Assembly (NCBI GenBank): GCA_905250005.1
Contig: CAJNOH010000220.1
Span: forward strand, 1-64,000
DNA: 64,000 bases
Direction of reading: 5' to 3'
DNA from: Rotaria sordida
Lineage: Eukaryota
How positions within the stretch are numbered: the first letter of the stretch is position 1; the number at the start of each line of letters is the position of its first letter. The notes beneath the pieces are model-generated. The model was not told the DNA's origin. It ran no database searches and saw only the letters and a program-made list of their open reading frames with translations. The position numbers and the translations under genes were made by a program. Of the stretch, positions 48-48,001 are shown in pieces.

Positions 48-320
48 CGCTAATGCAGCTATAGCAAACATACTACATGATGCTGAAATATAATTTCGTT
101 CATATCGTTTTAATATGGATGATGATGAATGCACTCTTGTTGTAATTGGTATTATTGGTTGTGAAACAAGATTTTGTTCTTCAACTATTGATTGTTCGGA
201 TGGATCATCAACATTTATTTCATCTTCTGTATTAACAAGTTGATGAGCTCGATGATGATCATTATTGGTAGTTGAGAAACGAGAAAAAAACCGTGAAAAA
301 AATCGATTATTCGGTGACAT
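48..320 (-). CDS. First coding exon (partial gene) of an unidentified protein; the gene continues beyond the window start
   Basis: Minus-strand ATG at 320..318 opens a frame reading MSPNNRFFSRFFSRFSTTNNDHHRAHQLVNTEDEINVDDPSEQSIVEEQNLVSQPIIPITTRVHSSSSILKRYERNYISASCSMFAIAALA. The frame ends exactly at a GTAAGT donor (revcomp of plus 42..47). No domain recognised; hydrophobic tail suggests a TM start. Confidence 0.35.
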
Positions 321-2703
321 AATTTGATTTATTTTTCTTTAGATGTTAACAGGACATATTAACAATTTTTATGATGATAAACAAGATGAAAAAAAAAATA
401 GCAAAAAAATAGATCTTAAAAATAAAATAATAATAAAAAATAACAATAAAGTTGAGAAATAAAATATTTGTTTTTTTCCTTAACTGACAGAATAGGTCTT
501 TTCACGTATTTACTCCATTGTAAACTTTATTTGTGTCTTTATGTACCCTCATTTTGATTGACTGTTTTTCTAATCAATCATTTTTATTGGACGATCGTTT
601 AAATGAATCTCGTTCTTTGATTGAAGGAAAGAGTAGACCATTCGTGATAAACGATTGTTATTTATTTATTTTTTTTACACTATTAGCCCAAAAGATATTT
701 ACCAAAGATTTTCTTTTTTTAAACGACACAGATGGCAGTATTATGCTAAGTCCTGTTTGAAAATGTTTTTATAAAAAAAATAAAAATGAGGAAGTGACTA
801 AATGATAAATTTGTATTAATTGATGAGATATTCTACAAGACAGAGAAAAGAGTTGATATACATCAGATTTTTTAATTCTATTTTTAAAAAGCGTAGAATA
901 TTGAGCAGTCGAGCAATGAATGAAATTGATCAATTAAAATTTAACTTCACAGTTAAATAAACCCAATTACGAACGTTTCATATGTCTGTTCAAATGACAA
1001 GAAGTATCAAACATAAACATTAAAAGAATCTATAAATAGCCCTTGTAAAATGATGTTTGTATATATCAATCATGAGATATATCGAGAAAGAAATCTTTAT
1101 TATTGTAAGATATCCTTTCAATACAAATTCTAAAAATTTATCATTGAACAAACAGTCGAGTGCACTCTCATGTTTTCTTTTTCCTCTTTCGAGAGCAAAT
1201 ATAAAAGTGCTTGCTTACATTCTTGTTTTAACGTCCGTTATCCTCCTCTTCTTATTCTAATGAGAAGAGAATTATCGCACTAATAAGACATATACATCGT
1301 GTAATTAGCAATAAATTTACTCATCTATCATCACTCTAACAAATAATGATCAACGAACAACGATTAGAAACATTACAGCAGCTACGTACAATTTGGAAGG
1401 AATAATTATGCACATTCACCATAATTCCAATGTAAAACACGATGTTCACCAACACCATACTCATTTTTCGTATCTGCAATGTTTTAATACTCAATTAGAA
1501 TCATCTACATCTCACACACATCTAAACGGAACTTAGATGTTAGTGATAATGATGGAACGTAGAGATTAGTACAGTAATGTGTATTATTGAGCGGAAAACA
1601 AAAATTACTAGTCGAATAAAATTATCAATAACTTCTGTCTCTACGTCTGTCGAATAATAATCCACAATAAATTCAACTCCAGCAGGAATTATTAGAAAAT
1701 TAACAATGTTGTCTTGCATTTGAACAGTTGAAATATGAAAATTTCAAACAACTTGCCATGCTTAGTGATTGAATATGATTTAGCCGTGAGTACAAAGAAC
1801 TGACCATCCGATTTAACAGTAGCTGATATATATGTGAAGAATATTACAAGTAACAAAAAGCTTCGGTCACGTTTTCACTCGTCGGTCATATGGGTAGTAA
1901 ATTAAAAATACGGGTAAACAAAAAACGACTCATACGCACCATTTATGTTTACTAATAAATGACTGTTTCAAATTACTAATATCAACATTACAGCAATTAA
2001 GTCAAAATTTATTTCTATGATTGTTTTGCTCTTGTTGTTCGTTACGTACTACTTCACGACAATGATAAATATGTCGAAGATGAAAATTGAACGAAAACTT
2101 CAATTAGCTGAAAATGTTAGACGTATTCAATATCGTTTCCAACGAAGAACAAATGACTCTCGATTTATTAATAAAGATCTTCGCAAATGTAATACAGCAT
2201 TAAAAATAGGCCGAATTAGAAATACTTTCTGCGCTATTACACTGTTTCTGATCGGTAATCGTACAATATATTGTACTCAATGCTAGTGTCTAGGTCATAT
2301 GTCAGATGAATGCTATCGCGAACATCCTAGTTATCGTCCCTGTCTTAATAGTCTGATTGATAGTCAAACACGGAGTGTTAGAACATGGTTTGTTGTGTTC
2401 AATATAATGACCATCACTATTCTTTATTTAGTAAATAGGAAAATAAATTGTATATACGTAGGATTTAAAAGAACAAGTTAACAAGGCAGTATCTACAGGA
2501 AAACTACATCGATTAGTATCTCACAATCATGCTTAGCCAATACAATTTCAGATGAACCAAGACGAATCTCTATCATTACAATCTCTAATGTCTCATACTG
2601 CTATATGGACATCTGCTCTATTACAATCATTAACAACAGCTAATGAAGATACAACCAAAATCTTGTGATTGATGAATCAAAATATGATCAATATGAAAGA
2701 GAT

Positions 2704-3507
2704 CCTAGTGAATGTACTTAGTTAAGGGTACCCATGTACTGAGAAAGCCTCAGCAAGGTACCTGATATGGATACTTTGAAAAATCTCAGTAATTATACTG
2801 ATGTAGGTACTGCATTGAATACTTATATCAGTATGTTTACTGAACAAGTACTTGTATGGGTACCCACACCTGTAATTTTACTGAGGAACGCTCTACAGGG
2901 TATCCTAGATTTGTCGCGTTCGGTCCAGCAATTGTTCATTCACTATTTTCTTTTGCACATACGGCTTCATATAAACAACTCGACAAAACATAAGAAATTA
3001 ATATTTTTTTCATACGAATTTTTTCCAGATTATTTCTCGACTATTTACTAGTCGAGAACATGCCGATCTCGATTGTAAATTGAGAGAAGACTACCTTGAA
3101 GTGGTCTGATGGAGATCCGATCAACTGAGGTCCGGTCAGATTCAGAAATTTGACCTGCTTGAATTTTCAAAATTAGAAAAATTAAATTAAACAAAATTGA
3201 AAAAAAATGTAATAAATTTCTTTGAGAGAAACAAAAATGAAAAAAGTCAAAGGTTAGGTTCGATCATCAACATACTTCAATTTTGGTAACAGGATACTTA
3301 AAAATACTGTGCAATAGTACCCAGTTGAGTACTTGATCAGTACCTTCAAGTACCCATTCACTAGACGCTTTTCAGCAGGGTACCCGCTCCAGTACTTTAT
3401 ACGTACCTAAAAGTACTTTAAGGTACTTCAGTTCCCGAAAGTTCCTGTGACATACTGGTGGCAGGGTACTTTTTCAAGTATCCTTAGTTCAGTACATTCA
3501 CTAGGGA
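2704..3507. mobile_element. MITE-like non-autonomous element (~800 bp) with ~30-bp terminal inverted repeats and a GTAC-rich imperfect-palindromic interior
   Basis: Left end cctagtgaatgtacttagttaagggtaccc (2704..2733) is the reverse complement of gtatccttagttcagtacattcactaggg (3478..3507), 26/30 identity. Interior is packed with GGTACC/AGTACT/GTACTT motifs recurring in both orientations. No coding capacity I trust (ORF 2767..3051 is low complexity). Confidence 0.4.
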
Positions 3508-4149
3508 AGTACGTAACATATGGGTAAAAGCTTAGATCGTATTAATGCAAGGATCAATCAAGTAGCTCTTGACACCAAATTATATCAAGAAGCACTGGTG
3601 AACCTACTGTCTACAATTGAATTGTTATTTGGCGATTTAATCTGATCGATGATGCAAGTTTTAATGTTGTTGGATTGCGGTATCAACAGCAGAAATTGCA
3701 AAACTTACATAATAACTTGACTATATTATTATTAAGTATGCAATCCAATAATACGATTCGACGAAAGCGTAGTACATTGCCACTTCTATGTCTCTCTTCA
3801 TTTCATCCGTCGAAAGCAATTGCAAACACGTCACAGAATGAATTTGAACAAAATATGAGCATTTAGATGGATACTATGTTCTTTAAAGTGAAAGCAGATG
3901 CCAAATCTTTTTTCTCCTTTCAAAAAAGTTAATCCTAAAGAGACATCGATATAACATTTTTGTCAATCAGGCTTCCAGGCAAAAGATCACAAACTAGTGG
4001 ATAAAGTTCTTGCAGAATGACTTAAGGCAAGTTCTTAAGAAAATATCCTGACACAGTATAAAAATATGTCACTTCAAAAAGTACAAAAAGGACAACTCTT
4101 TTTGAATTTTTTCCATTAAAACATTCTTTATAAAAGGAGTGTCTCTATT

Positions 4150-4470
4150 TTATGTATTTACTGGAGTTGGTAAACTGTGGAATACATATTGAATATCTCA
4201 ATTTAATATTTTTTATCAACATGAAACAAATAAAAGCGGAGATGCATGTATAGCAGTAAGAAAACATTTGAAAGCATCAAAAACACATTGTAATCTGGAA
4301 AACAAAGTTATTATTGATGTAATGGACTCACTGAAACAGTTAAAATAATTGCTTTTTACTGATCGACAGTACAGACTAAAGATTTAGAAGACTTACAATC
4401 ATACATCATTGAAAATACAATCATCACTGGTGATTTTAATGCATCCATGCAAGAATTGGGTGTGGGTGTG
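4150..4470 (+). mobile_element. Decayed non-LTR retrotransposon (LINE) fragment, endonuclease (EEP/APE-like) C-terminal region
   Basis: Translation around 4400..4460 gives ...IIENTIITGDFNASMQELG..., the GDFN signature near the end of LINE APE endonucleases. Surrounding frames are broken by stops and shifts. Confidence 0.25.
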
Positions 4471-6439
4471 CATAAGATAAAAGCAACAGAAGTTTAAAGG
4501 AATGCATAGAAAAACAAAAACAATCGGTGATACATTCTATCAACGTCGCATTCTACAAAACGTTCGAACAGAAACATTCATTTTGATGTTTACAAATGTT
4601 TATTTGTAAAAATGTTGATTTTTATAAGAATAAAAATATTTCTTAATTGTGAATTGAAAGGTGTATGAAACTATTCTCATACTCTTAAAAGATTTTTGGA
4701 TGAAGGAAGTAAATAAGAAGAATGTTGATAAATGGTATGTGAGCTACATTGGCTTTCTTGTTGCTTTAAAACAACAGACTTACATGATAGAAAGAAAAAG
4801 AAAAGTTCCGACTAGCACTGATTTCGTACATTATTTAGTGGTTGAAAGATATGAAAATGATGAAAAATAAGTATTATGAAGAGAAGAAAATGCGCAGCAC
4901 AAACGAAGAGACAAGAATACTACTAGAGTACTACAAGGACGCAACTTTCTATAGTCGTACATGACCCTTAAAAAAAGTGATTTGCCCGTAAGCACTATTC
5001 GTAAAGTTAGTTTAATATTTTATTCACGGACCAATACTTTTGTTTTATTCGTACATAATTGTAAAATATATACGTTTAACGATTATTTTTATATCTTCTA
5101 TCAATAGTTGCAGATTGGACACAGGAAGATACGATTGTCAGATCAGGTAAAATATGCAAAGTTTTAATTTTATGATTACTGAAATAACCAATATCGAGTA
5201 GAGCTTGAGACATTACTTTAGATTCATATTTGCTGACAACGCTAAATAACCACATGTTATATACCGAAAAATTTCCATATGTACTTGGTACTTCAGTCTT
5301 TTGTTCAGATTACACTCTATCGTATTGTTTATTTGTACAAAGAATAATTTTAGGTGCTCGAATAGATTTTATTTTGCGATTTTTATGATGAAGTTTAAGC
5401 CTTGTCGAGCTGGGTTCCTGTGTATCATAAGTTGAAATGGTTTTAAATTGAACATATTCTATATAAGGAATGATATTTTTTTTAATCATTTTCAAGACGA
5501 TTAAATGGGTTCGACCATCTAGTAATGACATTTGTCAGATTATTACAAGATCTCTATTCAATACTATCTAGCATTTTTTTAATCAATCGTTTTTCCATTG
5601 TAGACAGCGCTAATATTTTACAAGTGTTTGATAGAATATCAACGTGAGATAATTAATGAAAATAAATATTCATTTTTTTGTACTGGCTCATTACAAATAC
5701 GTACGTCGCTTACAGCTCTTATATCTTAGCAGCAGAACCAAACAACCATGTAACCAAGGATGTCACTATTAAACAGTCGCGTTTGAAAACACACATTTTC
5801 AATTTTTTTACAAACAATAGTGCTTAGAAAACATATGTCTTCTCAAAAATTTACTTTTCATATCGTTTAACTACCTGTATCTGAAAATCTTATACTTGTA
5901 CCAAAGTGCAAGTGCGAATGTTCGACTCACGGATTGCAGAACACAACATACTACTACGTGTAATGACATGAAAAGTGTAAAATAAGAATGTCAAATATCT
6001 AAATGGAATAAATGGCAAAAGTTTGTGTTCTCAATTCAAGAAACACACTATAATACAGAGAGGCGCTTTAGTCATATCTCTCTAGGGTATATAAACCTAA
6101 ATTACTAACCTTTTCAAAATTAGCTACTAACGAGCTCATTCGATACTATACAGAACAGTTCAAAGCACAAGATTCTGATATATCAGATCATCGCGAAGTG
6201 CAAATTGAAACAGCCTATCAAAAACTAATGAGTCAGCTAAAGACATTATAGGAAAAGATCGAAACAATGAATGTTACGGAGATAAAGAGATCTTTATCAA
6301 AACTAGAATCAACAAAGTCGTCTGACTTCAATGTTCTATCCAATTTTATGAACAGATGACTTTCACCGAGTTACATAAGTTGTCTAACACACTGCTTTGA
6401 TACCTGGTTGAATAAACACAGATATTCCGATGTTCAAAA

Positions 6440-7020
6440 ATCAGCTAATATAGTTACATTGAATAAATTAAAATTAGAAGTACTTCGTTATGATCAGACA
6501 CGTTTGGTTTCACTTCTAGTAGCAACACATACAAAATTGTTGGAAAAATTATATTAGATAAAATGAAGCACCGCACAGAAATCAACAATCAAGTTCCAAC
6601 TGAATAGTGAAGTTTTAGTCTTGAGTGCCTACTTTCTGCTCAAGTTTTATCGATTTATCAAGAAAAAATATCGAAGTATTTCAAGAAATGAAAACAATTC
6701 ATCAATTTGTCTAAGGAAGTAGTGCAGATTTTTCTCTCTATCTCTCTTTACCCCAAACAAAAAAGCAGCGCTTTTGAGAAAATCCATGAATTGAATAAGG
6801 TTGTTTCATCGTTGTCCTTTTGCGCGGGCAATAAATCTTCTCCGAATTATCAATGTGGTATCATTACAAGATTAAGTACATTGACTTATAATAAAAAGAC
6901 TGAAACGAATTTTAAAAAAATCAGACTTAGTTCGATCAATTTTTTTACACTGGTATGCCTTCTCAAGATTTATTTCATTAGAGTAAAAGTGAATTCCTTG
7001 GACAATTCCTTCGAATGAAA
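6440..7020 (+). mobile_element. Decayed LINE reverse-transcriptase fragment (RT motifs 0-2), frameshifted
   Basis: Around 6500..6600 one reads ...VSLLVATHTKLLEKII/LDKMKHRTEINNQVPTE..., matching the LINE RT N-terminal motif IsLLsv.sKvlEkii.nRl. ORF 6707..7018 then contains ...KQKSSAFEKIHELNK..., matching RT motif 2 (kAFDkV.H..L). Several frameshifts and stops; non-functional. Confidence 0.3.
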
Positions 7021-7673
7021 TAATTGCAACATATGTGTTCAAGGCATCCATCGCTGCTTCTTCTGTGCCTTGAGTATTTATCCATGTGAAACCTGCTATG
7101 CTTTTGTTTGTTATTCTTTATCTCTATTCTCTCTTCTTATTTTTTTTTCTCTTCATATAACCTCTTTCGTTCATTTTATCTTCTCTTCATTTTTTCCTTA
7201 TTGCTTTCTCAAGTCACTTTTTCTCATCATATTTTATTTATCTAGTGTGCTATCTTGTAAATCAATTTTTTGCCTTGTCTCTGTGTGCACTATAATAACT
7301 TTTATAATCATGTAATGAAGCAGCTGTGAATGCTTATAGTATTCGTTATAGATACTTCCGAGTGTAATAATAAAGAGGACAAAATCAAAAAAAAAAACTT
7401 CAGGTGATTCATATTTACAATGAACCGAAGGACGAATGAATATCAATGTATGATCCGGCCTTTTTATGATACACAATGTCAATCATGAACAATAAGCTGA
7501 CTGTAAGATAAAACAGAACAGATAAATATATTGCATAAGCAAGCAAGGTTAATATATGGAAATAGTTTTGATGAATGGATGTGTAAACGTGAACTTAAAA
7601 GATTAAAAAAATTATCTATTTTCTTTATCTATTCATTTCCATCTTATCAATTACAATAAAGACAAAATAAAAG

Positions 7674-9494
7674 TTGAGTTTAATCAATATCATGGATTTA
7701 GTCAGTCGTTCTAGTACAAAATATCATCTTGCAAATATTAATGATGATACTGTTTCAAATAGAACATCAAATAATGGATTTCGTTTTATGGATAAGAATG
7801 GTCGTATAAATATAATATATTCTTCATTTGGACGTGTAAAACATATGCATTCAAATGCAATTTTATTTATCATGCAATCTGACTGGTGGCTTGTATTAAC
7901 ATTTGTTTTATTTGGTTTTATACTAAGTTGGTTTTTTTTTGCCTTTCTTTATTTTCTCATTTCAATTGAACATGGAGATTTTGTTTTAAATGAAGATGAA
8001 CAAGCTTTATTAGATAATCAAACAAATTATACACAACAATATTTGAAAATAGAACGAGAAAAATGTGTTAAAGATGTACATAATTTTTTAAGTGCATTAC
8101 TTTTTTCGATTGAAACTCAACATACAATTGGTTATGGTTCGAGATATATAACAACAGAATGTATGGGTGGTATACTTGTATTAACTCTTCAATCATCCCT
8201 TGGATATTTATTACAAGTTATTGTCACGCAAATTGTTTTTACTAAATTATCACGACCTACAGGTGAAATTTATTCCTTTTGTTTTTTGTCGTCTTAAATA
8301 AAAGATTCAGATTGATAGAGATCGAAAGTCTTAGGTTCTTCTGACACTTAATAAGATAAAAGTAGATTTTATTGAATTAATATAAAACTGAAGTAATGCA
8401 GTCAACTTTTTTCGTAGTAGATTGTAGACAAAAGAAATCTTCGAAGAATGTTCCTATAATAGAAAATTATTTTTATTAGTCTAGGACCTCTTCCAATAAT
8501 TCATTATTGTATTCTATTGTGTATTAAATATTGATTTAAACTCATTGCATTGTTTCATAATAAGTCAATTTAAAATTATTTATATATCATTTTGATCAAG
8601 TCTTATTAACTACTTGATGATAATAGATAAATATTTGTTATATTTTTAGAAAAATCTCAATTTATTATATTCAGTAATTATGCACTTATTGCATCACGAG
8701 ATAATCAATTAACGTTAACAATTCGAATAGGTATTTTAAATGAATCATGTCAATCGTAGATTATTAATTTAATAATTCATTTCTTTTTTTTTTTTTTTTA
8801 CATAGTTAACTTATCTACTTCCCAAATGATATTTGCTACTGTTCGTTTATTAATGATTCGTCAACGACGAACACTTGAAGGTGAAATAATTCCTCATCAA
8901 ATCTATGATATGGAATTAACACATCTTTGTAATGGTCAATTATTTTTTCTTCGACCAACTATTGTTGAACATATTATTAATTCACGTAGTCCACTTTATG
9001 GTATACAACAATCAACATTAGAAAAAGAACATTTTGAAATTATTGCTATTATTGAAGGTTCTTTTGATCATACAGGTTTTTCATGTCATTTTCGTACATC
9101 TTATTTACCTAATGAACTTTTATGGGGTTATCAATTTTCACCATGTAATCCTACATTAAGTGGATTTGATTATGATAAATTTAATCGTATACAATTGATT
9201 GATGCTCCTCATCGTTGGAGTTATGAAGACGAAGAATTGAACGATACAAGAACATCTGATATACCCATTAGTTTGCCATATTTATATTATACAAATTTCA
9301 ATGAAAGATTACAACGAGAAAATTCATTTGATGATACTCGTCCATCTACTAAAGGATATAATCGATTATCAGCAGTAGAATCAATATCAAATAATAATTT
9401 TAGACATATAACAACAATAAAACCAATAGATATTGATGAAGAACTAGACGAAGTAGAAACATTTTCATATAAATCAAGTCATTCATCTGTATAG
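7674..9494 (+). CDS. Inwardly rectifying potassium channel (Kir family), 3 coding exons: 7674..8262, 8650..8730 (27-codon micro-exon), 8806..9494
   Basis: Exon 1 has the RFMDKNGRINI (RFVkKnGqCNV-like) motif, TM1, the pore helix with TIGYG selectivity filter, and TM2 ending ...TKLSRPT at an AG|GTGAAA donor. The micro-exon after a TTTTAG acceptor encodes EKSQFIIFSNYALIASRDNQLTLTIRI, aligning with Kir [28 protein letters not shown]. Exon 3 follows a TTTTACATAG acceptor and reads GNLSTSQMIFATVRLLMIRQRRTLEGEIIPHQIYDMEL...EGSFDHTGFSCHFRTSYLPNELLWGYQF, the Kir cytoplasmic domain. All exons phase 1; stop at 9492..9494. Confidence 0.85.
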
Positions 9495-14298: not shown

Positions 14299-17200
14299 TT
14301 AAGACGAATACCACTGTACTAAATATAGGTTTCCTAATGTATCACCAGCTACAACACCAAATATTCCATTATTATTTTGTTTCCATGTACGCATTTTTGT
14401 AATTGGTGCTGGTACAGGATATTGTCCAAGAATATCGTCAATTTCCTCATCTTCTTGTTCATCATTATCATTTATTTTCATATGTTTTGAATGATCATTT
14501 CTATATTGTACTCGTATGACATTATCGAAACCACTTGTAAATATAAATTCATTATTAATTGAACATAATGCTGTAATTGATCGTTGTTTTGATGATATTT
14601 GATTTTTATTCCATGTTTTTATATCACTAAATAAATTTGATGTTGAATACATATTTCCTGTTGTTGTACCTAAATAGAATACTTGATTATTATCAAGATT
14701 TTCTATTGATGTTATCCATTCAGATGGAATTGATATTCGATATTCTATTTTTGATGAATATGATGCATATAATTTACTATCTGTTGAATCAATTAATGAT
14801 AAATCATATGAACATAATTCATTACTTGTTGAACCAATTGTTAAAATACAATGTTTATGTTCATTTAATGTTAATAATGATGATAATGGCCATTGACATG
14901 TTTGTGTTTTATATGTTTTTAAGCGTTCAAGTGAAGATGATGAATAAAGATAGAATGTAAGTGAATCAAAAGATTGATTTTCACCAACAACAAAATATGG
15001 CATATCATATTGACCAGAAATAAATGAAACAGGTCCATTTGTTGTTGTATCAGTTCTTAAACGTTTTATTGAACATTTTTCTTCATTTTGATTATTGATG
15101 ACTGTCCAAATTTTAATTTTTTTATCAACAGAACCAGTTACAAGAATATGATGTTGAGCATCTGAACGAATCAAAGCCATACCAAGAATTGTTTCATCAT
15201 GTGCTTTAATTGATTGTATAATACGAAATGGTTTTTTAGACATTTCATTTTTCATCATATCTGTATCCATTTCATAATCATCATTTTTTAATGATGATGA
15301 TGATAATAATGACCAAATGAATAGATATGCATCACGTGAAACAGTAAAAACAAGAGAATTATCACGAGAAACACTAATCGATGTAACTTCATCTAAATGA
15401 CTAACAGGTTGAGGAACTTGTGGAGTCATTGCTGATGTTGTTGAATCATTATTTATAAATATACTCGTTGGAATTTGCCATGAACGAAGTGTTTTATCAA
15501 GTGATGATGTTACAATTGATTCATTACTAAGTACAATATCATTTAATGGTTGTGCATGTGCATCATAAACACAACGTTGTTCAGGATCAGTTGGACGCCA
15601 TACACGTATTGAACCATCTTCAGATGCACTAACAACAAGCATTGTATCAACTGTATGTGTTGTACGTGAAAGTTCTTTTTCTTGTTCTTCAACCATATTC
15701 GCCCATTTAGAACCTGAATCGGTTTCATATTTCATACTGACACCTTTTAATTTAATCCATAAATCACATGAAGTTATTTTGTCTGTATGACCACGTAAGC
15801 ATGTAACTTCAGTACCTTTATGAGACCATACTCGAATTGTATTATCTAATGAACCAGAAATAACACATCCATATGAAAAACAAACTGTATTAACAGAGCC
15901 TTGATGACCACGAAGTGTTACACGTGCTTCTTCAACATTAGCTGAAACAATATCCATAGAATTATCATCAGTTTTTGTTGTTTTTGGTATTGTATTCCAA
16001 ATTTTTAATGTATTATCATTTGATGCAGTTACAAGTAAACCATTAGTTGTATTTGATAAAGCAATATCATTTATCCAATCAGCATGACAATGAGCAAGTG
16101 TATTTGATAGTGTTACAACAGATTTTGATGAATATTGATGTATATTCCATATATGTACTTGACCATCACGACTAGCTGATATTAATTGATGTGTTTCATT
16201 ATTAAATGTTAAACCAGTTATTGGTGTACGATGTTCAGTTAAAATTTCATTTGGTTCATATGTTGAACGTTCAAAATATTTTGATAGCATATAAACACAT
16301 ATTGTTGCATCTTCAGATCCTGTTGCAATCATATTCAATTTACTCATAGCACATGATAGAACAGCTGCTGTATGACCTTTAAGTATTGATGTTTGAATAC
16401 GAATATCAGTTCTTTTACCTAAATCTTTTAAATCATATATACGAGAATTATGATCACCCGATGCTGATATTAAAATATTTCCAGATGCAGGTGAAAATCT
16501 AAGACGATTAATACGACCTTTGTGATAATGAAATTCTTGTTCAGCAGTACCATTTTGTATATCAAATATACGTATAGAACCTGAATGATATCCAGCTATA
16601 ATAAATTCACCTTCTGGATGAATTATAATACTCGATACTGAACCCCATGTTTCATTACCAATTATCATTTGACATTGACCTATTGTTGATGAAAATACAC
16701 GAACACGACCATCATTACCAGCTGATGCTAATGTTGATCCATTTGGTGAAAAATAAATTGAACTTATACGAGCTGATATAAGACCAACTTGACTACCACT
16801 TAATGAATTCCATAAACGACATTCACCATCAATTGAACATGATGCTATATAACGACCATCAGCTGAATAAGCAACAGCTTTTATTGAACTTAAATGTCCA
16901 CGCATAACTGATTTACGTTGTCCACTTGTTACATTCCATTGTCGAACAATACTATCCCAACAACCAGTTACTAACATAAAACCATCAGGATGAAATGCAA
17001 CACTTGATACTGGTTTTGGATGTAAACGTATTTCTGTATCGTACCGACCTTTTTGTATATCCCATATACGTACAAATGAATCCCATGAAACAGATGCAAA
17101 TTGTGTACCACGTTGATTTGAACATAATTCTGAAACTCTTTTATCATGTTTAGGTGAAAGTATATGTAAACGATGACCATTTGCTACATCCCAAACTGAT

Positions 17201-17360
17201 AAACCACCATCATTACTACCACTCGCTAAACGATCATTACCAACAAAACATAAAGCAGATATTGGTGCAGCATGACCAACAAATAATTTTAATAAACGAG
17301 ATGTTGATGTATTATATAGACGAATTAAACAATCAGCAGAACCAGCAGCTAGATAAACAC
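14299..17360 (-). CDS. TEP1: TEP1-like terminal exon (WD40 beta-propeller region)
   Basis: Acceptor tgtttgtttag|GTG at 17361/17360, giving a 73-bp intron 17361..17433. Frame continues [32 protein letters not shown]...[17 protein letters not shown] into the 892-aa ORF 14299..16977. Confidence 0.8.
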
Positions 17361-20300
17361 CTAAACAAACAAAAAAAATATTTAAAATTGATTATTTTGT
17401 TTCGAATTCTTATTTTATTATTTTTAAACTTACCTGATGGTGATATTGCTAAACATCGAATAGGTTCTGTAAAACCTTCAATTGAATATTTCATTTGTTC
17501 CATATTATCTGGTTTATTAATACGAACAAAAGCTGTAATTTGATCATTATTATTAATTGAATTTTTTTGATAATCAGAAAGTATTCGTTGTATATTATCA
17601 AAAACAGGACTTGTTTCTAATTCATTTAATGCTTGTTGATAAATTAATGATGGATTAACAGTTAAAATATGACTATTTCGTTGTATAAATGAACGATATT
17701 GTTGAAGATATACTTCATTAATTTGTCGTTCTTTTGTAGTTATTATTGATGATGATACTGGTTTTGTTTTCATAATTGAAGAAATTTGTGTATTAGTTGA
17801 TGAAGATTTAATTAATTCATAATCATCAATTAATGATTGAATAAGACCAACACGACATTTACCAGCAATAAATTTAAGATTAGTTAATATTGTATTAAAT
17901 AATTTATATTCTTCAGCAACATATAAATAATAAGGTAAATGTTCAAATGCGTTCATATTCATTGATGTCCAATGTGGTCCTGTTGCTTCACACCAATAAT
18001 AAAAAGCAAGAAGTTTATATAAATTAATTTGTTGTTCATTTGAATGTATATAACGTGTTTTAACTATTTGACGAATTTCATTTGATGCTATTGAAATTGT
18101 TTGTGGTCCATCATATAATTGAGGTTTTAATAAAATATGACAATTATAAATAAAATCTGCTAATTGTAAAGGTGTTGTTGTTATTGGATAAGTATAATTT
18201 TCTGGTGGAGGTAAAGTTTTTATTGAACCAAAAGATATATTTAATAAATCACGTAATTCTTGTTCAGTTAAATCTTGTCGTGCTGAATAAATTAAACCAA
18301 ATACTGTAGCAACATATGTTTCACCAAATAATGTATCTAAACGTTTAAATATTTCAAGTAAAAATAAATATTGTCTTTGTGGAATAGATTTTAATTTATC
18401 TGTTATTTTCTTTTCATAATCAGTCATTAATAATAATTCTTCACATATTAATGTTAAATATGATGGTTTAAATGAATCACGTTTACTTGTTATAAATTTC
18501 ATTTGTGATGAAAATGCTTGTTCATCTAATTTTTTACCAAAACGATCAAGATGTTTACGAACAATTTCACTACGTTCAAGTAATTCAAGATTTGATATAT
18601 TAATTGTTAATAAATTAGAAAATTTTTTACATGCTTGTTCAACAACACTATCTTCAGTAGCACTAATAATAAATGTTATTTTCTCAAAATTAAAATCTTT
18701 TGGAATAAAATTTAATGTATGAACTAATGTATCATTATCAAGTAATTCAATACCATCAATACAAATAACAATATTTGAAGGATTTTTTATCATACGAAAG
18801 AAATCGGATAAAATTTTACATAAATCTGTATATGAACTTGTACGAATTTTATCAATTGGAAATTGTTTTACTAATTCTGGCTGATCATTTATCATTTGAC
18901 AAAGTAAACGACGAAGCATTGCAAGACTATTTAATGATGCACGTGTAATACCAACATAATGTTCATATAATTTAACATTTAAATCGACTTTTGATAAAAT
19001 ATTATTAGCAATAGCTGCAGTAGTTGCTGTTTTTCCTGAACCTTGTTGTCCTGTAATAAGAATAATCGATGATTTTCCAATAGATTTAATTGTATCATAA
19101 AGAATTTTATTTCGACTAACAAAATGTTCCATAAATGAAATACGATATTGTCGATGTTGATTATCTTCGATTTCATTATCATCTAAAAGAACATATTCAG
19201 GTTTATATTCTTCTTGTAATGATGTCCATAAATTATCAATAACACGTTGTGCAAATTGTTCAAGATCAGTAACAAGTGGTCGATCATTTGATATACCTTG
19301 CCATGAACATGGATAACCATCAAATGTTTCAAAACCACTTGAACGTATACGTTGTTTTAAATTATTTATTTTTATTTGTGAATTATCATCTTCAGAAATA
19401 AAATCATCAGACCATGGTTTAGGAATATTTGAAAGAAATTTTGGATCACGAAGATAAAAAAATGCTCGATTTTGTTTTATTGATGATGATGATGAATTAA
19501 GTGCTCCAGCTTGCATTTCTAAATCTGTTATACCAGAACCAATTGGTAGTTTATTTAACCATGTAAATCGTGGATCATCTTTTGGTACATCATATGTTTT
19601 TGGTATAAAACCATAACGTTCACCAACTAAACCAATAAAATAATCACTACGATATACTTCATTAAGACATAAGAAAACAGATTGTTTTGTTTGACTTTCT
19701 GCAACACCCCATCGAAGATCTATTTGATAAAGATTAACAAAAAGACTTTTTGCTCGTTGACGTAATTCAGGAAAAACATAACGTGTTAGAAGATCACGTT
19801 CAGCATGCATATCTTTAAATGTTGATGATATAAATACACGTACTGTTCGCCAACGTGGTACTAATGTAGTCATTGGTAAGTTTGTAGACAATTTTGATTG
19901 TTCTTCATTTGATGAATCTGTTATTGATTGTGAATCGTTTTTTGATTCAGTTTTTTGATTAAGATTATGTGCATTATCAATATTTTCAACATGTAATAAT
20001 TGTCCATCATTACCACGTTCAGCAATAAATTTTAAAATTGAATCAGAAAAACCACTTAAAAATATATCATTTCGATTATTAAATCGATCTGATTTTGTTA
20101 ATGAACATTGAGCTATACTTAAATCAATACTGACAAACATAAGTTCAGGATTGACTAAATAACGATAAAGTGAAAGAAATCGATAAACAAAATCTGATTC
20201 AGCTGTATCAGCTTTTAATCCATCTGAAACAATAATACTAAAAAAACAAGAAGATAAATTAAATTTATTTTTGTTGATTCTTTTTCATTACTTACATATT

Positions 20301-23008
20301 ATCAAACCATTGTTTTTCAGCAATCATATTTGTAAGAAATGTTGGTGGTATACAAACATCTGATGATGATGATGATGCTGTAAGTTGATCATTTGATAAA
20401 ATTTTTGTCATTTGATTAAGTATTGTTTCTTGTGGTGTTTGTTCAATTTCAGTAAAACTATCTTTTGTTTTATAAATAATTAATTGACTTGATTCACATG
20501 CTGATTTACACATTAAACCCATTAAAAGACCTATTTCAGCACGTGTTCGTGGTTTACCTAAACCTTTAGCTGCTTGACATGGTTGAGACATTGCTTGACT
20601 TAAATTACAAAAAACAAATGTTCGACCAGGTATTGGTTGACAATTATGTTGAGTTGCTATTTTAACTGAACAATCAAGTGCTTTTCTATAACGTTGTAAA
20701 AGTGCAAGATCATATTGGATTTCTTTTGAACCAAGTTTTTTAGCTTTTTCTAATGGAGTTAAAGCAGTCTTTTTGCCTTTTTCTTTTCGTGTTATTCGTC
20801 GACTTTTAACATCTGGTACACTAGCTATTGTTTCTTTAGCTGCACACCATTTATTAAATTCTTCTTCAAGTTCATCCAATATTTGATATGCAGAAAAGAA
20901 ACGAAATGGAAATTGACGACTATATATAACTGCACCATCATCTTGAAGTTTTTTTAATACCCATTGATGATGTTTCTCAGAAATACCTAAAAAAAAATAA
21001 AAGATTAAAATAGAGATTATTTGTTTCTTTTTTATTATAATTTATAGAAAACTACGAAAATCATATTCGATGAATTCCATCAGTTTTCTCAATACATACC
21101 AGCTTTAATCATATTTCGTAAATTTCTTAACATAGCCATAAATGGAAGTTTTTTATTATCGATCAATTGTTGCCAAACTGCAGCTTTGTTTCCTTTCAGA
21201 CTAATTTGTGTTTCCCATCTATATTTAAAAGAAAAATATTTGTGAAATGAAAAATTGAAATAAAGAAAACTAATTTTACTCACGTTTCTGGTGTTGGTAA
21301 TTTCATACGTTTATTTGCACGTTCTGGTTCGAATACACCAGGTAAACGTGATTGATAAAAAAGTTCGGATGTTTCAGGATATCGTTTACCTAATAGACAC
21401 CAAACATGTTCAACAGGTTCACTAATATGTAATTGACGAATTAATCGTTTTAATGTGAATGCCATTCGTCGTGTTTCACGTTCTTCTTCAGTAATTTGTG
21501 CCATAGGTTTTCCTGTTGCTCTATCTGATTTTTGATCTACTGATGCAACACTCACATTCGAATCGGTTGAAGATCCTCGACTTGTTCTCCTTCCACCGCG
21601 CATGGATCGAGAACCTCGAGCACCAGCTCTCGAATACGAACCACCTCTTCCTCGAGTTCCCCTAGTTGTTGTTGCAGGTTGTGCTGTATTAGCCTTTTTT
21701 GCTTTTTTCAAACGAGCTTTTTCTTTATTATATTTTGCAAGTTGATATTTATCAAAATCAGGAAATTTTTTTACCATAACACGACGTAATGCAGATGGTA
21801 ATGAACCAAAATGAATACGTTTATCAAAAAATGTTTGATAAAGTTCAGCTATTTCAATCCAATCTGATGGTAAATTAACAGTTATTTGAAAATATTTCTT
21901 TAAAAATATACGACATGGTTCGGTATACGCAGCATATGCAAGTAGAAAATTTGCTGTTATACGAATATTTAAATGATTTCGTGTATAAAGAGCAGCCTAA
22001 AATTTAAAAAAACAAAAAATTATTTTCGATAAATAAAACATTTCTGGTTGTATTTTAATTTACTTTAAGAATAAATTCTGGATCTTGTTCAGTTACTAAA
22101 TTAGCAAGACGAATAAGTTCATTTCGTTTTGAATCTGTTTGTTTTCTTAGATCTGGTTGACTTAATAATGAATCAGCCAATGAATTCAGAAAACTTTTCT
22201 ATAAAAAAATAATGGATATAAATTTTTTTCTAGAAGAAAAAACCAATCAATATCAAACCTTAATTGATTTAATGCCAACATTGAAATCATCATCATTTAC
22301 ATTTTGACTTTCAAGTTTAGCATAGATTGAAGAAAATGGATCAATACGAGGACGTTTTGGTGGTGGAACATGACAATGTAAATCAATACCAAGACGAATT
22401 GGTTCTGGTTGAATATTTTCAGCATTATATTTGCGTTCATTATTATCCGAGAGTGAAACAGGTGTACTTGTTTTTGTTGTTATCAATGTAGATTTATTTA
22501 AAATTTCTGGAGTTAATGATTGCTTTATGAGTGTTGATTCTGAAGGTTCGGCTTTACGTTTTCGACTTAAACTTGTTTCACTTGTTAACAAAGATGAATT
22601 ATTTAAATTCGATGATGAAAGCAATGTATTATTAGTAGATAATTTCACGGTGGAGAGAAATGATGATGATGTAGGAGCAGTATTTAATATAGTTGATGAA
22701 GATAATTTAGGAGGAGTACTTAATAGAATTGATGAAGATGATGGTTTAGATGAAGTATTTAATAGAGTTGATGACGATGATGGCTTATGCAGAGTACTCA
22801 ATAAATTTGATGATGAAAGAAGACTCGATGGTTTGCTTGTACTTGTTTCTGATAAAAGTGAACTTGTTGTGTTAATTGTTGATGATGATAAAAGATTCGA
22901 GCCTTTAAGTAATGAACTATTGCTAAGCGTAGAATTTTTTGTCGACAAGAGTGAATTTGTTGTAGACAATAATGAGGATGCCGTTGATGGCTTTTTTGAA
23001 TCAGCCAT
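14299..23008 (-). CDS. TEP1: Telomerase/vault-associated protein 1 (TEP1)-like gene with TROVE + DUF4062 + NACHT + WD40 architecture; 7 coding exons at 22259..23008, 22064..22198, 21284..21996, 21100..21218, 20296..20986, 17434..20237 and 14299..17360
   Basis: Exon 1 (ATG at 23008) is Ser/Leu-rich with SSLLS/STLLN repeats, like TEP1 N-terminal repeats. Exons 2-5 encode TROVE-like sequence: [20 protein letters not shown]..., [24 protein letters not shown]..., [25 protein letters not shown]..., [11 protein letters not shown]. Exon 6 carries [27 protein letters not shown] (DUF4062 signature, as in NWD1 and TEP1) and the NACHT P-loop [15 protein letters not shown]. Exon 7 is about 1000 aa of WD40 repeats (WD/WN dipeptides every 40-45 aa) ending at the TAG at 14299. 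Donors GTAAGT/GTATGT/GTGAGT/GTAAAT/GTTTGA, acceptors TTTAG/ATAG; introns 58-113 bp; phases 0,0,2,1,2,1 are consistent. Confidence 0.85.
17434..20237 (-). CDS. TEP1: TEP1-like exon 6 (DUF4062 + NACHT NTPase domain)
   Basis: Acceptor ...gtttttttag|T at 20238/20237; donor SPSG|gtaagt at 17434/17433. Walker A is [11 protein letters not shown]-track protein 17333..20140 is continuous across this span. Confidence 0.8.
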
Positions 23009-43100: not shown

Positions 43101-46100
43101 TTCAAGATTTCATCAACATAAAAACATATTTTTTTGAAAACTCAATCATATATTCTGATAGTGCTTGGAAACTTCTCTCATTGTGTATATTCATATTTTG
43201 ACTTAAATTTATTTACTATTTGAGTCTAGTGAAGACATCCTTATCATTAGATCTGTATGAATTTATATTTTTTACTAATCCTTCAGTTTACGTTTTAAAT
43301 TTATGGTCACTTTAGAAATAACTTTTTACAAAAGTAATTATATCCTCTGGAACCATTGTAAAATTTTCTATCATTGTATAGTTTATAAGCTTTTGCTTCC
43401 TAATAATTTTCTGATCGAAGTTTCAAATATTGTTGAAGAATTCGATTCTTCACGATTTTTTTTTCTGGTTACGCCACTACTTCCTATGAATAGTGTCCTA
43501 TACATGTCCATATTCTCAATAGTATACGATCATTCGATGTTCAAATTGAATGTTTTACTTTATTTTAATGCGCATATTTTGCATCTAACAAGGGGATAAA
43601 ATGTCATAAACAATCGTCTAGTCTCATCATATAAAGCAATCATATTAGATTGCTCATATGTTGACTCTTTAACTTATTAGGATAATTATTCACATGTTAG
43701 TTCAAACTGTGATATATGATTTCCTCAATAATATTTAAAATATTGATCAGAAAATTATTATATATCAAAAGTTGTCCAAATACAAATCGATAGAAATTTT
43801 TCACCCTTACCAAAATGCAGCAAAAAAATGTAGCCTTTTACTTGTTACAAATGCATTCACAAGTAATGATTAGTCTCTATATACTGAAAGAAAATTTCAC
43901 GCGATATCAGAATATGTAATTGAATTTTCAAAAACTACATTTTTACATGGATGAAATATTGAAACAAAAAATCGATGATAACTATTTGTTTTTCAAGTGT
44001 ATATAAATGTTTTCTTTTTGTCTTGACAAAAATTGATTTGTTTTAGCTTAATGCTCAAATAGAAGATTTTCGACGTGAATGTGAAGTATTAAAAGAAGCA
44101 AATACAAAATTAGTTAGTTCAGCATTTAGTGGTGATCGTGATAGAGAATTTCGTGAAAAAGAACGAGCATTAAAATTACAAATAGCACAACTTGAAGCAA
44201 CGCTTAAAGCAGATTTAGGTGAAAGAGGAAATTTACTTGATCGACTTACATTAGAAAAAGGTAGAAAATTTATCTTTAATAAATAGAAAAAAATTAATTA
44301 ATTAAATGATTTTCTTTTTAATTTTAAGATACAAATAAAAGAACTGATGACGAACATCGTGCTATGCATTTGAAATATTTAGAAATGAAAGAAAAATATG
44401 ATGATTTAGCAGAAAAAATGAGATTTTTTGAAAAAGTTTGTTATTTCATTTAGTTGTTTGTTTACAAAAATCTAAATTGGTTTAATTAGGAAAGTGATAT
44501 AAATATGAAAGAAATTGAAGAAGCACTTATTATATTACGTCAACGTAAACAACGACAAGAACCAAATTTTGATTTTCTACAAAAAGTTGATGATGAAAAA
44601 GCACAAAGTAAGAAAATATAAAGAATAAAAACAAAAAAGATTTGGTTTTTTTTGTTTTATTTTAGATTTAAATCGACGAGTACTTGAATTAGAAAGTCAA
44701 TTAGCTGAAACAGCTAATGAATTAGAAAAAACTCGAAATTTATTATTTATGCAATATAAAATTAATCGAGATTATAAACTTGAAGTATAAACAATGGGTT
44801 TTTTTTTCTTTTGATTAAGATTTAATTTATACTTTTATAGGTTGATTGTGTTCAAAGAAAAATGGACGAAAATCAAGCAGAACATTCATCACGTGTACTT
44901 GAAAGTGGTCAATTACTTGATATTCGTGCTGATCGTATTCGAAAACTTGAAAAGTATGTTTCTTTATTCGATAGAAAATGTAATAAGAAGAGAAAAAATA
45001 TGAGCATTTATAATTGCAACTTATTTTCAGACAAGAAAATCATTAGGAATATTAAAAAAAAAGCTGTAAATCTTTCACTGTTTTATTTTTTTAACTAGAG
45101 CCTTAAAAGATGTTGCTTATGGTACACGTCAATATCGTATTCAAGATCAACCAATTACTGATGATAATCTAACTAATGATTTAATTGAAGAAGCTATTGA
45201 ACTTGAACGTGGTCAAAATTTAATTGAAATTCATATAAGTCGTGCTTCATTTAATGAACGTGCACTTGAATTTTTTGGTAAAAATAATGAACCATCAACA
45301 TTTTGTTCGATAGAATTTTTTGAACATGAATTACAAATGACACCTATTGTAAGAGGTCGAATACCAGAATATCATTTTACTGCACAATATATTGTTAATG
45401 TTGATGATTTTCTTTTATATTATTTACAAAAAGAATATACACTTATTGAACTACATCAAACAGTTGGACAATCATTTCAAACAATTGCTACATGTAAACT
45501 TAGTTTAAAACAACTTATTGAAGGTAAATTTAAATAGAAAAAAGAAAACAATCATTTTTAATTCTATTTTTAGGTAATCAAGGCCGATTACATGGTACAG
45601 CTAAATTAATTGCATCTCATCAAAATAATATTGATATTGGTACATTTGGTGTTATTGAATATTGGATTCGATTACGTGTACCTATGGAACAAGCATTCCG
45701 TTTATTAAAAGAAAAAATGAAAGCTCAAGGTTATCTTGTTACAACAAGTCGTCCATCAACAAAAACATCTGATGATATTGAACAACAACGTGAAATGAAT
45801 CCAAATATGAATGAATTAACAATAGCTATACTTAATTGTTCAAATGTTAAAGCAGCTACACCAGGTAGAATAGAAACAAAATTGTTTTTCTTTTCTTAAA
45901 ACAAAAAAAAACCTTTTTTCTAGATCATCAACCTGATCTTTATTGTATATATAAATTTTATGATTTTGTTGATCATGATACAATAACAATTCCATCATCA
46001 AATAATCCAAATTTTGATGATCGTATACAATATCCTGTTCAAATGGATGCTGATCTTGATCGTTATCTTAAACAATCTCAATTAACAATATTTGTTTTTG

Positions 46101-48001
46101 ATGATCGTGATCAAAAAAATGATCGTTATGTTGCACGTGCTGATATTCCATTAATACCACTTTCACATGATAATCAAATTCGAGGTACATTTAATATGCG
46201 TAATGATCAAGGTGAAAATAATGGTACAATGGATGTTACACTTAAATGGACATATTCATATTTACCACCATCATCATCAACTCGTACACCAGCTCAACGT
46301 TTAAAAAGTGCACCAACAACTCAACGTGAACCATTAGCTTTATTACCTGATGAAAGTGTATCTGGACATAAAACTATAGCTGAAAAACAACGAGAAATGA
46401 ATGTAAGATTAACATCACGAGATGTACTCGGATCTGATAGTGAACAAAGACCAAAACCAGGTAAATTCAAAGAAATGATTAAAAAAAAATTTTATTTTAT
46501 TTTTTTATTTTAGGTTTACCAAGGAGTAGTTCTGGTTCACCATCACCTAGTTCGTCACAACCAGTACGTAATGGACGTGAAAATTATCATCAACGAACAT
46601 CATCAAATGCAAGTTCACAAAGTAAACGAGGTAATTACATTTAAAATAATATCATTCGAATTAAATTTCTCTCGCTATTTTTAATTTCAGTTAGTTTTGA
46701 TAATCGAGAAGGTATACCAACTCGATTTCAAAATGGGGTATGTTAATTTATAATCAAATATTTAAATTTTTTTCCTTGTTTTTGTTTGTTGTAAATTTTA
46801 GGATCATCAAATTACTAGCGAAAGCAGTCGTGCAGTATCACCTGGTAACTAGAAGAAAAATATTCATTTAAGGCCATGCCCTCAAAAATCGATCTTTGAA
46901 CAGGAGCATTCAAATGTTAGAATATGTTGGAGCTGTAGTAAAGAGGCTATGATAAAAATTTCAGCGCTGTATCATAACGTTTTTGGGAGATATTCAATAA
47001 ACTAGGATTAAAAATAGGTCGTTTAATAATCCAAAATTCTCCGTGGGTCTTCATTCTATATACTTAATTTTCTTTTATCGCAGAACGAAATTTAGTCAAA
47101 TTAAAAGAATTGAAATCTCTGAATATATAAGCATTTTATAGATTGATTGTTGATAAATATGATTTGATTTCAATTTATTTATTTGTATTTGATTTATCTT
47201 TAGAATCATCTGATGATGTAGTCAATCCATCAGGTACATCAACACGTTATGTTGATGAATCTGATCCAGATATTATTTATCAAACATCAACGCCAAAAAA
47301 TACTAAAAAAGAAAATGATGTTGTAACAATTGGTGTACATGATCTTGTACTCAATGATAAATGTTCTGTATTTGATAATGATAATTGTGAAAAAGTATTT
47401 GTTAGTGTAGAATTTCTTGATTATCCACAAGAAGCACTTGAAACACCATATGCATTAGTAAAAGGAGAACCAAATACAAAATATAGTTTTAATTTTCAAA
47501 CTGGTATAATAAATTTTAATTATTGATTTAGTTTTCTAAAGATTCATTTTTCTTTTTTGAAGATTTTTCGGTACGTGATCAATCAAAGAAACATCAACTT
47601 TCGGAACTTATTGGAACACAATCAAGTGGAGAGTAAGTCATTGAATATGTATATAGAATGATAAATAATGATATATTGATTTATTTAGAATAAAATTTGT
47701 TGTCGTAGGTGAACCACCTGAAGATCAACCAACACTTGATTGTGTTGATGTTGGTGTTGCTACTATAAATGCTAAACAACTTTTACAGAAGCAAACTGAT
47801 CTTATTGAAAAAAGCATTGATGGTAAAATGATTTTATCTGTATTTTATTTTTACTTCTTTGTTTTTTTTTTTTGTTTTTCAAGTATATGGAATCGATGAT
47901 AACCCAGAAGTTATTGGACAAATGAATGTAACTGTATCAATTGTTCAAGCATTGAATAAAATAACACGAGAAGGACAAAATATTCGTCGAATACACGATT
48001 A
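40180..48001 (+). CDS. RPGRIP1L: RPGRIP1L (RPGR-interacting protein 1-like, ciliary transition-zone scaffold) orthologue: N-terminal coiled coils, central C2 domains, C-terminal RPGR-interacting domain; over 20 short exons with one roughly 1-kb intron at about 43050..44050
   Basis: Exon 2 ...[44 protein letters not shown] + [14 protein letters not shown] aligns with human [47 protein letters not shown]. Further matches: [36 protein letters not shown] (human [35 protein letters not shown]); [26 protein letters not shown]; the C2 region [40 protein letters not shown]...[26 protein letters not shown]; a second C2 [54 protein letters not shown]; and the C-terminal [12 protein letters not shown]...[18 protein letters not shown] (human VGVAHVDLADMF...LQVTVEALHALRSV). 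ATG at 40180 sits about 20 bp downstream of ggcctataaatt (40151..40162, TATA-like); stop at 47999..48001. Confidence 0.85.

Follow-up and report, generated by a model that had tools for sequence, protein, structure and literature searches.

Does a single intron-split locus of the bdelloid rotifer Rotaria sordida encode the complete architecture of TEP1 (telomerase protein component 1, vault protein p240), and if it does, how might such a protein act in a group that has been reported as TERT-less? The locus occupies positions 14299..23008, on the minus strand, of the 64,000-nucleotide stretch of contig CAJNOH010000220.1 (assembly GCA_905250005.1), hereafter called the window. A preliminary description, made from the letters alone, had proposed here a seven-exon gene of roughly 2750 codons, with a TROVE module, DUF4062, a NACHT P-loop and about 20 WD40 repeats, and had taken its product for a "telomerase- or vault-type" ribonucleoprotein component. 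We find that the gene is almost certainly the bdelloid ortholog of TEP1, and the best explanation of the locus as a whole is very probably one intact TEP1 gene that encodes a 2757-amino-acid (aa) NLR-like STAND protein. As to function, our preference, held with moderate confidence, is that the rotifer protein acts as a vault-associated, RNA-binding NADase.

Gene model and orthology

The rebuilt gene consists of the following parts.

14299..23008, minus strand: the whole gene, assigned to TEP1; seven exons, six GT-AG introns, 2757 codons plus stop
22259..23008, minus strand: exon 1, aa 1-250; ATG at 23008; Ser/Leu/Thr-rich N-terminal region with two basic motifs resembling nuclear localization signals (NLS-like)
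22064..22198, minus strand: exon 2, aa 251-295; start of TROVE
21284..21996, minus strand: exon 3; TROVE, with an RG-rich insert
21100..21218, minus strand: exon 4; TROVE
20296..20986, minus strand: exon 5; end of TROVE, then start of the von Willebrand factor A (vWA)-like DUF5920
17434..20237, minus strand: exon 6, 935 codons; end of the vWA-like domain, DUF4062, NTPase, helical domains and first WD strand in one open frame
14299..17360, minus strand: exon 7, stop codon included
22258-22199, 22063-21997 and 21283-21219, minus strand: introns 1-3, GT..AG
21099-20987, 20295-20238 and 17433-17361, minus strand: introns 4-6, GT..AG

Joined at these canonical splice sites, the exons give a coding sequence of 8274 nt with no internal stops and a product of 2757 aa. 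The introns measure 60, 67, 65, 113, 58 and 73 nt from the first to the sixth, all six run from GT to AG, and the region is AT-rich, with a G+C content of 24-32% per kb. Both ends of the gene (14299 and 23008), the number of exons and the length of about 2750 codons were reproduced exactly as they had been described.

Evidence for one continuous gene came from a contig of the Joint Genome Institute (JGI), L001 (8494 nt), which was reached through the second-best match of a protein search. It carries a single uninterrupted and intronless open reading frame (ORF) of 2743 aa (nt 131-8362), which spans the N-terminal repeat through the last WD40 and is preceded by an in-frame stop upstream of its start codon. 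This ORF is 74% identical to the product of the seven-exon model and crosses all six predicted junctions without gaps, which argues for a single gene instead of two. Exon 6 leads to the same result from within the locus, since this exon alone links what is left of the vWA-like domain to DUF4062, to the NTPase and on to the first strand of WD40, so the TROVE half and the STAND half are inseparable as genes. The earlier placement of the TROVE and NACHT-WD40 exons in one gene is thus borne out both by the frame of exon 6 and by the continuous ORF of L001. Genomic DNA of R. magnacalcarata shows the same division into large exons, its protein P0001 reads across the exon 1/2 junction (..NVGIKSIK, followed by exon 2 residues), and the C-terminus is common to all Rotaria-like sequences.

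Assignment to TEP1 rests on similarity along nearly the whole protein. BLASTP against TEP1 of the sturgeon Huso huso gave a match that is collinear from aa 246 onward, with 2249 columns at 30% identity and 956 bits, and matches at 32-40% identity, named TEP1 proteins among them, were found in echinoderms, molluscs, annelids, priapulids, chelicerates, Hydra, Trichoplax, vertebrates and Amoebozoa. The nearest matches are rotiferan: 82% identity in R. magnacalcarata, 76% and a partial 85% in further Rotaria sequences, and 63% in Didymodactylos. The TEP1 family is already well known across animals, and rotifer copies have already been deposited without a name; the one from R. magnacalcarata (P0001, "unnamed protein product" or TROVE domain-containing protein) has the same start (MAD[SP]..), end, exon layout and neighboring IRK gene as the copy described here. 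At 2486 aa, P0001 is short of about 270 aa in its WD region, which are present in the R. sordida copy. Over 16157-17097 of contig L002 of R. magnacalcarata, several frames of either strand are open, and this stretch is most likely a run of N, that is, an assembly gap. The Didymodactylos carnosus protein (P0004, 63% identity) is 5′-truncated, as is P0002, whereas the copy described here is complete; L001, at 74-76% identity, shares its start and end.

Domain architecture

Domains were called with Pfam profiles against the cut-off of each family, and the following features were placed on the gene.

20625..22261, minus strand (span includes introns 1-4): TROVE RNA-binding module, aa 250-693; PF05731, E 4.3e-103, 346 bits, profile positions 20-442 of 442
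19958..20528, minus strand (span includes intron 5): DUF5920, vWA-like, following TROVE, aa 726-896; PF19334, 39.9 bits, cut-off 27
19205..19852, minus strand: DUF4062 / NIR domain, predicted TIR-like NADase, aa 932-1147; PF13271 and alignment to PDB 11gz_A
19517..19519, minus strand: codon for E1043, the counterpart by alignment of catalytic E1008 in human TEP1
18551..19084, minus strand: STAND P-loop NTPase (NACHT-type), aa 1188-1365; NPHP3_N, AAA_16
19028-19051, minus strand: Walker A, GQQGSGKT, aa 1199-1206
18752-18769, minus strand: Walker B, VICIDG, aa 1293-1298
17807..18349, minus strand: NWD1-type winged helix and APAF1_C-like helical domain, aa 1433-1537 and aa 1565-1613
14302..17509, minus strand (span includes intron 6): WD40 region, aa 1713-2757; an estimated 20-21 blades in about three propellers

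The TROVE module that had been claimed for exons 2-5 is confirmed by the nearly full-length PF05731 match listed above. Against solved structures, the TROVE region gave only weak matches, to 9l5y and 9kop ("TROVE domain-containing protein"), at E 1e-8. The region assigned to DUF5920, inside which the exon 5/6 junction falls, is drawn as vWA in Fig. 5A of Osinski et al. (bioRxiv 10.64898/2026.05.01.722283). An Arg/Gly-rich insert lies within TROVE at 21560-21700 (minus strand, aa ~405-435); the R. magnacalcarata version (..RGGRGANRGGRGADRGGRGADRGGRGR..) exceeds it in length and in repetitiveness, and the sturgeon alignment has no such insert.

The preliminary description had treated DUF4062 as uncharacterized, which no longer holds, as two preprints of 2026 describe it as a TIR-like NADase that is used in bacterial anti-phage systems (Osinski et al. 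10.64898/2026.05.01.722283; Le Mouellic et al. 10.64898/2026.09.04.749371). In the rotifer protein, PF13271 matches aa 936-1016 with 48.7 bits (cut-off 24.7, E 9e-13), and aa 932-1147 align with residues 894-1113 of human TEP1 in PDB 11gz_A over 216 residues at 43% identity (E 1.2e-55). Human TEP1 hydrolyzes NAD(P)+ through its catalytic E1008 (10.64898/2026.05.01.722283; 10.64898/2026.09.04.749371). In the alignment to 11gz, both E1008 and R976 are conserved, as E1043 and R1010, and other rotifer TEP1 sequences retain the ITDLE motif of the domain; because the two residues and the motif are kept, the rotifer domain is likely competent as an NADase.

The NTPase region is matched by NPHP3_N over aa 1188-1312 with 36.1 bits (cut-off 24.8) and by AAA_16 in the same region with 34.2-35.5 bits (cut-off 32.6), and the Walker G, G, K and D residues are invariant in the TEP1 alignment. 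Behind it, HTH_NWD1 (PF25469) scores 29.5-31.1 bits (cut-off 27), and the APAF1_C-like family (PF17908) scores 20.6-22.2 bits, just under its cut-off of 22.8. As a single sequence, the NTPase region matched none of the solved structures, and a profile built from 14 TEP1 NTPase regions found APAF-1 as its best match among them (E 5e-11). The claim that this is the sole STAND NTPase of the window agrees with the single [GA]xxxxGK[ST] motif present in open segments of at least 50 aa in all six frames, although the claim itself is uninformative.

The WD40 region is matched by Pfam WD40 with 292 bits, in 10 separately significant stretches, and by both propeller families specific to TEP1, Beta-prop_TEP1_2nd (PF25047, 196.7 bits, cut-off 89) and Beta-prop_TEP1_C (PF25048, 77.4 bits, cut-off 32). 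Modeled with AlphaFold2 from an alignment of 25 sequences, exon 7 (1019 aa) reached a mean predicted local distance difference test score (pLDDT) of 79.4 and is all-beta, with about 81 strands, and the top Foldseek matches of the model are tandem WD40 propeller proteins. The model is consistent with about 20-21 four-stranded blades, which would fit three seven-bladed propellers and agrees with the earlier count of about 20 WD40 repeats. We also considered whether the low-pLDDT loops of the WD region might conceal introns and rejected this, as the loops are kept in the intronless L001, with 6 gap columns over aa 1701-2757. With both TEP1-specific propeller families matched as well, the order of domains that had been proposed (TROVE, DUF4062, NTPase with the P-loop GQQGSGKT, WD40) is upheld.

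Comparison with related proteins

The rotifer protein has the same order of domains as vertebrate TEP1 (human Q99973; PDB 11gz), that is, TROVE, vWA-like domain, DUF4062, NACHT-type NTPase, helical domains and about 21 WD40 repeats, and the two have in common the catalytic Glu, one active-site Arg and both Walker motifs. They differ in sequence, with about 30% identity overall and 43% in the NADase domain, in the N-terminal 245 aa, where the rotifer protein has an array of SxLLS motifs in place of the 30-aa repeats, and in the RG-rich insert of the rotifer TROVE. NWD1/NWD2/NPHP3-type proteins and APAF-1 resemble the rotifer protein in having DUF4062 before a STAND NTPase, an NWD1-type winged helix, APAF1-like helices and WD40 repeats, but they are without the TROVE or vWA RNA-binding module; among human DUF4062 proteins, only TEP1 showed NADase activity in vitro (10.64898/2026.05.01.722283).

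Ro60 and bacterial Rsr share the succession of TROVE and vWA-like domain, but proteins of the Ro60 type measure about 500-540 aa, end after vWA, have Y RNAs as their ligands and lack NADase, NTPase and WD40 domains alike. In the rotifer protein, the same modules are followed by about 1860 further residues in the same ORF, which sets it apart from the stand-alone Ro60/Rsr type. The bacterial DUF4062 / NIR systems (Swarozyc, NIR-Avs, Vulcan, Vesta and Evangelion) have the TIR-like NADase fold and the catalytic glutamate and are often fused to STAND NTPases; they differ in being prokaryotic and acting in phage-triggered abortive infection, without a TROVE module or a vault context.

N-terminal region

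Exon 1 and its opposite strand contain the following features.

22574..23008, minus strand: array of 11 polar-x-L-L-polar motifs (SSLLS, NSLLS, STLLN and others), aa 11-142
22660..22816, minus strand: DNA tandem repeat with a period of 36-39 nt and about 4 copies, units KPSSSS[TI]LL[NS]T.. (Tandem Repeats Finder, 75-79% matches)
22547..22567, minus strand: basic motif SRKRKAE, NLS-like, aa 148-154; conserved in P0001 and L001
22322..22366, minus strand: second basic motif, NLS-like, aa 215-229; KRPR[IM]DPFSSI[YF] in P0001 and L001
22431..23048, plus strand: antisense ORF of 205 aa over exon 1, read as a by-product of composition and not as a gene

The first 245 residues do not align to vertebrate (sturgeon) TEP1, and aa 1-250 gave no Pfam match at E<=0.1, not even to the 30-aa repeat known from the N-terminus of vertebrate TEP1. 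To our knowledge, this repeat is restricted to vertebrates and hence does not define the wider group of orthologs. Exon 1 is rich in S, L, T, N and K, and its N-terminus, including MTDPKKTSISSSLLST.., is also found in R. magnacalcarata P0001 and in L001, where it belongs to the least conserved stretch among the bdelloid copies (44-50% identity). The description of exon 1 as low-complexity holds for the SSLLS/STLLN repeats and the biased composition, but it misses that the repeats form an ordered array: 11 instances of the pattern polar-x-L-[LF]-polar were counted where residue shuffling predicts 3.3, none of 2000 shuffles reached 11, and part of the array is a real tandem repeat of 36-39 nt in the DNA. 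The array is also enriched in L001, in P0001, in crinoid TEP1 (10 against 2.8) and in spider TEP1 (5 against 1.4); by the same residue shuffles, its enrichment was not significant in two vertebrates, Trichoplax and Capitella.

As a guess, this lineage-specific SxLLS array probably serves for docking and is disordered. It may even be an ancient docking region of short linear motifs from which the 30-aa repeats of vertebrates were derived. From the two basic motifs, we only infer that the protein could be imported into the nucleus.

On L001, the JGI gene caller called an antisense ORF over the Ser/Leu repeat as a gene (106-660, minus strand) and placed the TEP1 ORF at 695-8362 (plus strand), 188 codons late with respect to the true ORF at 131-8362. 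The TEP1 ORF was shortened there because the antisense ORF was also called as a gene.

Neighboring genes

Downstream of TEP1, the opposite strand carries an inward-rectifier K+ (IRK) channel gene that is split by an intron (7671-8294 and 8760-9491, plus strand; IRK E 4e-32, IRK_C E 3e-35). The same neighbor is found in this arrangement in R. magnacalcarata, so the synteny is conserved. Among the other sizeable ORFs of the window, Pfam found, besides the IRK channel, TPR with ADP-ribosyltransferase, RPGRIP1-type C2 and doublecortin families, and four more ORFs matched no family.

About 6 kb upstream of TEP1, a single-exon ORF of 625 aa (28746-30623, minus strand) starts with MGGQKSK, which resembles an N-myristoylation signal. 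It matches the NAD:arginine ADP-ribosyltransferase (ART) family with 23.3 bits (cut-off 22.3) and has C-terminal TPR repeats; by its family match, it would be another NAD+-consuming enzyme near TEP1. An island of higher G+C content (29001-33000, 0.36-0.40 against a window background of about 0.28) overlaps this gene and extends beyond it; it may reflect a foreign gene or simply densely coding sequence. Exons for RPGRIP1-type C2 domains and a doublecortin exon were found at 45070-46510 (plus strand) and 62969-63838 (minus strand), with E 3e-39 and 3e-12 for C2 and E 1e-14 for doublecortin.

Discussion

Could the seven-exon model be a fusion, made by the model itself, of a Ro60-like TROVE gene with an NWD-like DUF4062-NACHT-WD40 gene? 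Both architectures do occur separately in animals (Ro60 on one side, NWD1 and NWD2 on the other), but the 935 codons of exon 6 form one frame that holds the end of the vWA-like domain, DUF4062 and the NTPase, the exon 5/6 junction lies within DUF5920, the ORF of L001 is continuous, and the deposited rotifer proteins as well as TEP1 of other animals share the same fusion; we regard this alternative as effectively refuted. The antisense ORF over exon 1 is nearly as improbable as a real overlapping gene. Its 205 codons are long, and JGI called a similar antisense ORF of 184 aa on L001 (open run of 190 codons). However, when the codons of exon 1 were shuffled, antisense open runs averaged 131 codons and 8% of the shuffles reached the observed 198; for the rest of the coding sequence, the runs averaged 67 codons and did not exceed 109. 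The R. magnacalcarata locus has antisense ORFs of only 65 and 111 aa there, and the product of the R. sordida frame, rich in D/E/V/L, mirrors the repeat of the sense strand. Because shuffled codons reach its length and a long ORF is not conserved in R. magnacalcarata, composition explains the antisense ORF, as had been supposed from the start. Our reading is that the frame stays open owing to the scarcity of His, Gln and Tyr (3, 3 and 2 of the 250 residues of exon 1), whose codons begin with CA or TA and would create antisense stops.

For the intact TEP1 gene, the function that we prefer is that of a vault-associated, RNA-binding NADase, and its steps are extrapolated from mammalian TEP1. The TROVE and vWA-like modules would bind vault RNA, a small transcript of RNA polymerase III, and would suffice for association with the MVP shell. 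The NACHT-type ATPase would drive oligomerization, and the DUF4062 / NIR domain, once concentrated or oligomerized, would hydrolyze NAD(P)+ to ADP-ribose(-phosphate) and nicotinamide. The WD40 propellers, about three in number, could be a sensor or an autoinhibitory platform, as in APAF-1, a role that is speculative in the source paper as well. Vaults reconstituted from MVP and TEP1 carry NADase activity, and TEP1 density was seen on the central axis at the vault shoulder (10.64898/2026.05.01.722283). Mouse Tep1 is dispensable for telomerase and needed for the stability of vault RNA and its association with the vault (PMC2193651), and it is from mammals that vault RNA binding and residence in vaults are extrapolated (PMC2193651; PMC3762200, citing Poderycki 2005). 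In the bdelloid Adineta vaga, TERT was not found (PMC5405514), and several MVP genes are induced by radiation and desiccation (PMC10809525). Because Tep1 is dispensable for mouse telomerase, and because TERT is undetected and MVP is induced in A. vaga, we favor the vault over telomerase as the partner of rotifer TEP1. Of the "telomerase- or vault-type" component first proposed, the vault side is thus strengthened (PMC2193651, PMC10809525) and the telomerase side weakened (PMC5405514).

A protein that is a true subunit of the telomerase holoenzyme, with TROVE binding telomerase RNA and the protein acting at telomeres, would fit the discovery of mammalian TEP1 as a telomerase-associated protein that binds telomerase RNA (PMC2193651), as well as the two conserved NLS-like motifs of the N-terminus. 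It would also fit A. vaga, where telomeric repeats are nonetheless added to broken or truncated chromosome ends (PMC13564844), but with TERT not found in that species and no telomerase RNA family matched by Rfam within the 64-kb window, we think this quite improbable. Less remote, though still unlikely in our view, is a free, vault-independent NLR-like immune sensor, in which RNA or another ligand at TROVE or WD40 would trigger NACHT oligomerization and NAD+ depletion, as in bacterial Avs, Swarozyc and Vulcan. The architecture of an effector followed by a STAND NTPase and then repeats speaks for such a sensor, along with the conserved catalytic Glu and the best match of the NTPase profile to APAF-1, and bacterial DUF4062 proteins are abortive-infection NADases, while eukaryotic DUF4062 is found mostly in NLR-like proteins (10.64898/2026.05.01.722283; 10.64898/2026.09.04.749371). 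On the other hand, TEP1 of human cells is located inside vaults and is active there (10.64898/2026.05.01.722283), and an immune role of TEP1 is a hypothesis in the source paper that would be compatible with residence in the vault.

Several observations weigh against the reading of the locus as an intact TEP1 gene for a vault NADase. The continuous ORF that supports the junctions comes from a contig whose origin is judged by its lack of introns: since the genomic DNA of R. magnacalcarata is split into large exons and the 8.2-kb ORF of L001 is intronless, L001 is most simply derived from mRNA. In the active site, R908 of human TEP1 is replaced by Lys (K944), and the position of R954 is lost in a BB loop that is 2 residues shorter, so the activity may differ from that of the human enzyme. 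A scan of the 64 kb on both strands at the Rfam gathering thresholds matched no family, and no vault, Y or telomerase RNA was found within the window. The Pfam NACHT profile (PF05729) scores 22.0-24.3 bits over aa 1194-1365, under its cut-off of 26.7. What stands of the NACHT P-loop first proposed is the Walker A motif GQQGSGKT and a STAND NTPase recognized by orthology, and what does not is a NACHT match above threshold. TEP1 itself is the "T" in the acronym NACHT. All 14 TEP1 NTPase regions that we scanned match NACHT at E<=1e-3 (best 8.5e-12) while the rotifer score misses the threshold, and the assignment is therefore made by orthology: judged from its sequence, the domain is a STAND ATPase of the NACHT/NWD type and a marginal scorer in Pfam.

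That TEP1 is kept intact where TERT has been reported undetectable could mean that its ancestral, selected role is independent of telomerase and lies with the vault and the NADase, with the SxLLS array as an ancient docking region. The argument is that TEP1 is conserved despite the undetectable TERT (74-82% identity between bdelloids, with the catalytic Glu and the P-loop kept); we put it forward as a speculation that we would not expect to hold in full.

In conclusion, a rotifer TEP1 matters little in itself, as the family is widespread in animals and Amoebozoa, and only two angles of this work are mildly novel: the N-terminal array is ordered, and TEP1 has been kept in a lineage that induces vault genes and may lack TERT. 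The gene nonetheless provides a complete, junction-verified reference model of bdelloid TEP1, unlike the models deposited for rotifers, which are either cut short or gapped, and it shows that the newly found catalytic glutamate of the TEP1 NADase is conserved in Rotifera. An intact gene for a "telomerase protein" in a group reported to be TERT-less, and in which vault genes are induced under genotoxic stress, supports a vault-centered view of TEP1. If this view is true, bdelloids would offer a natural and accessible system for the study of vault NADase function in stress tolerance.

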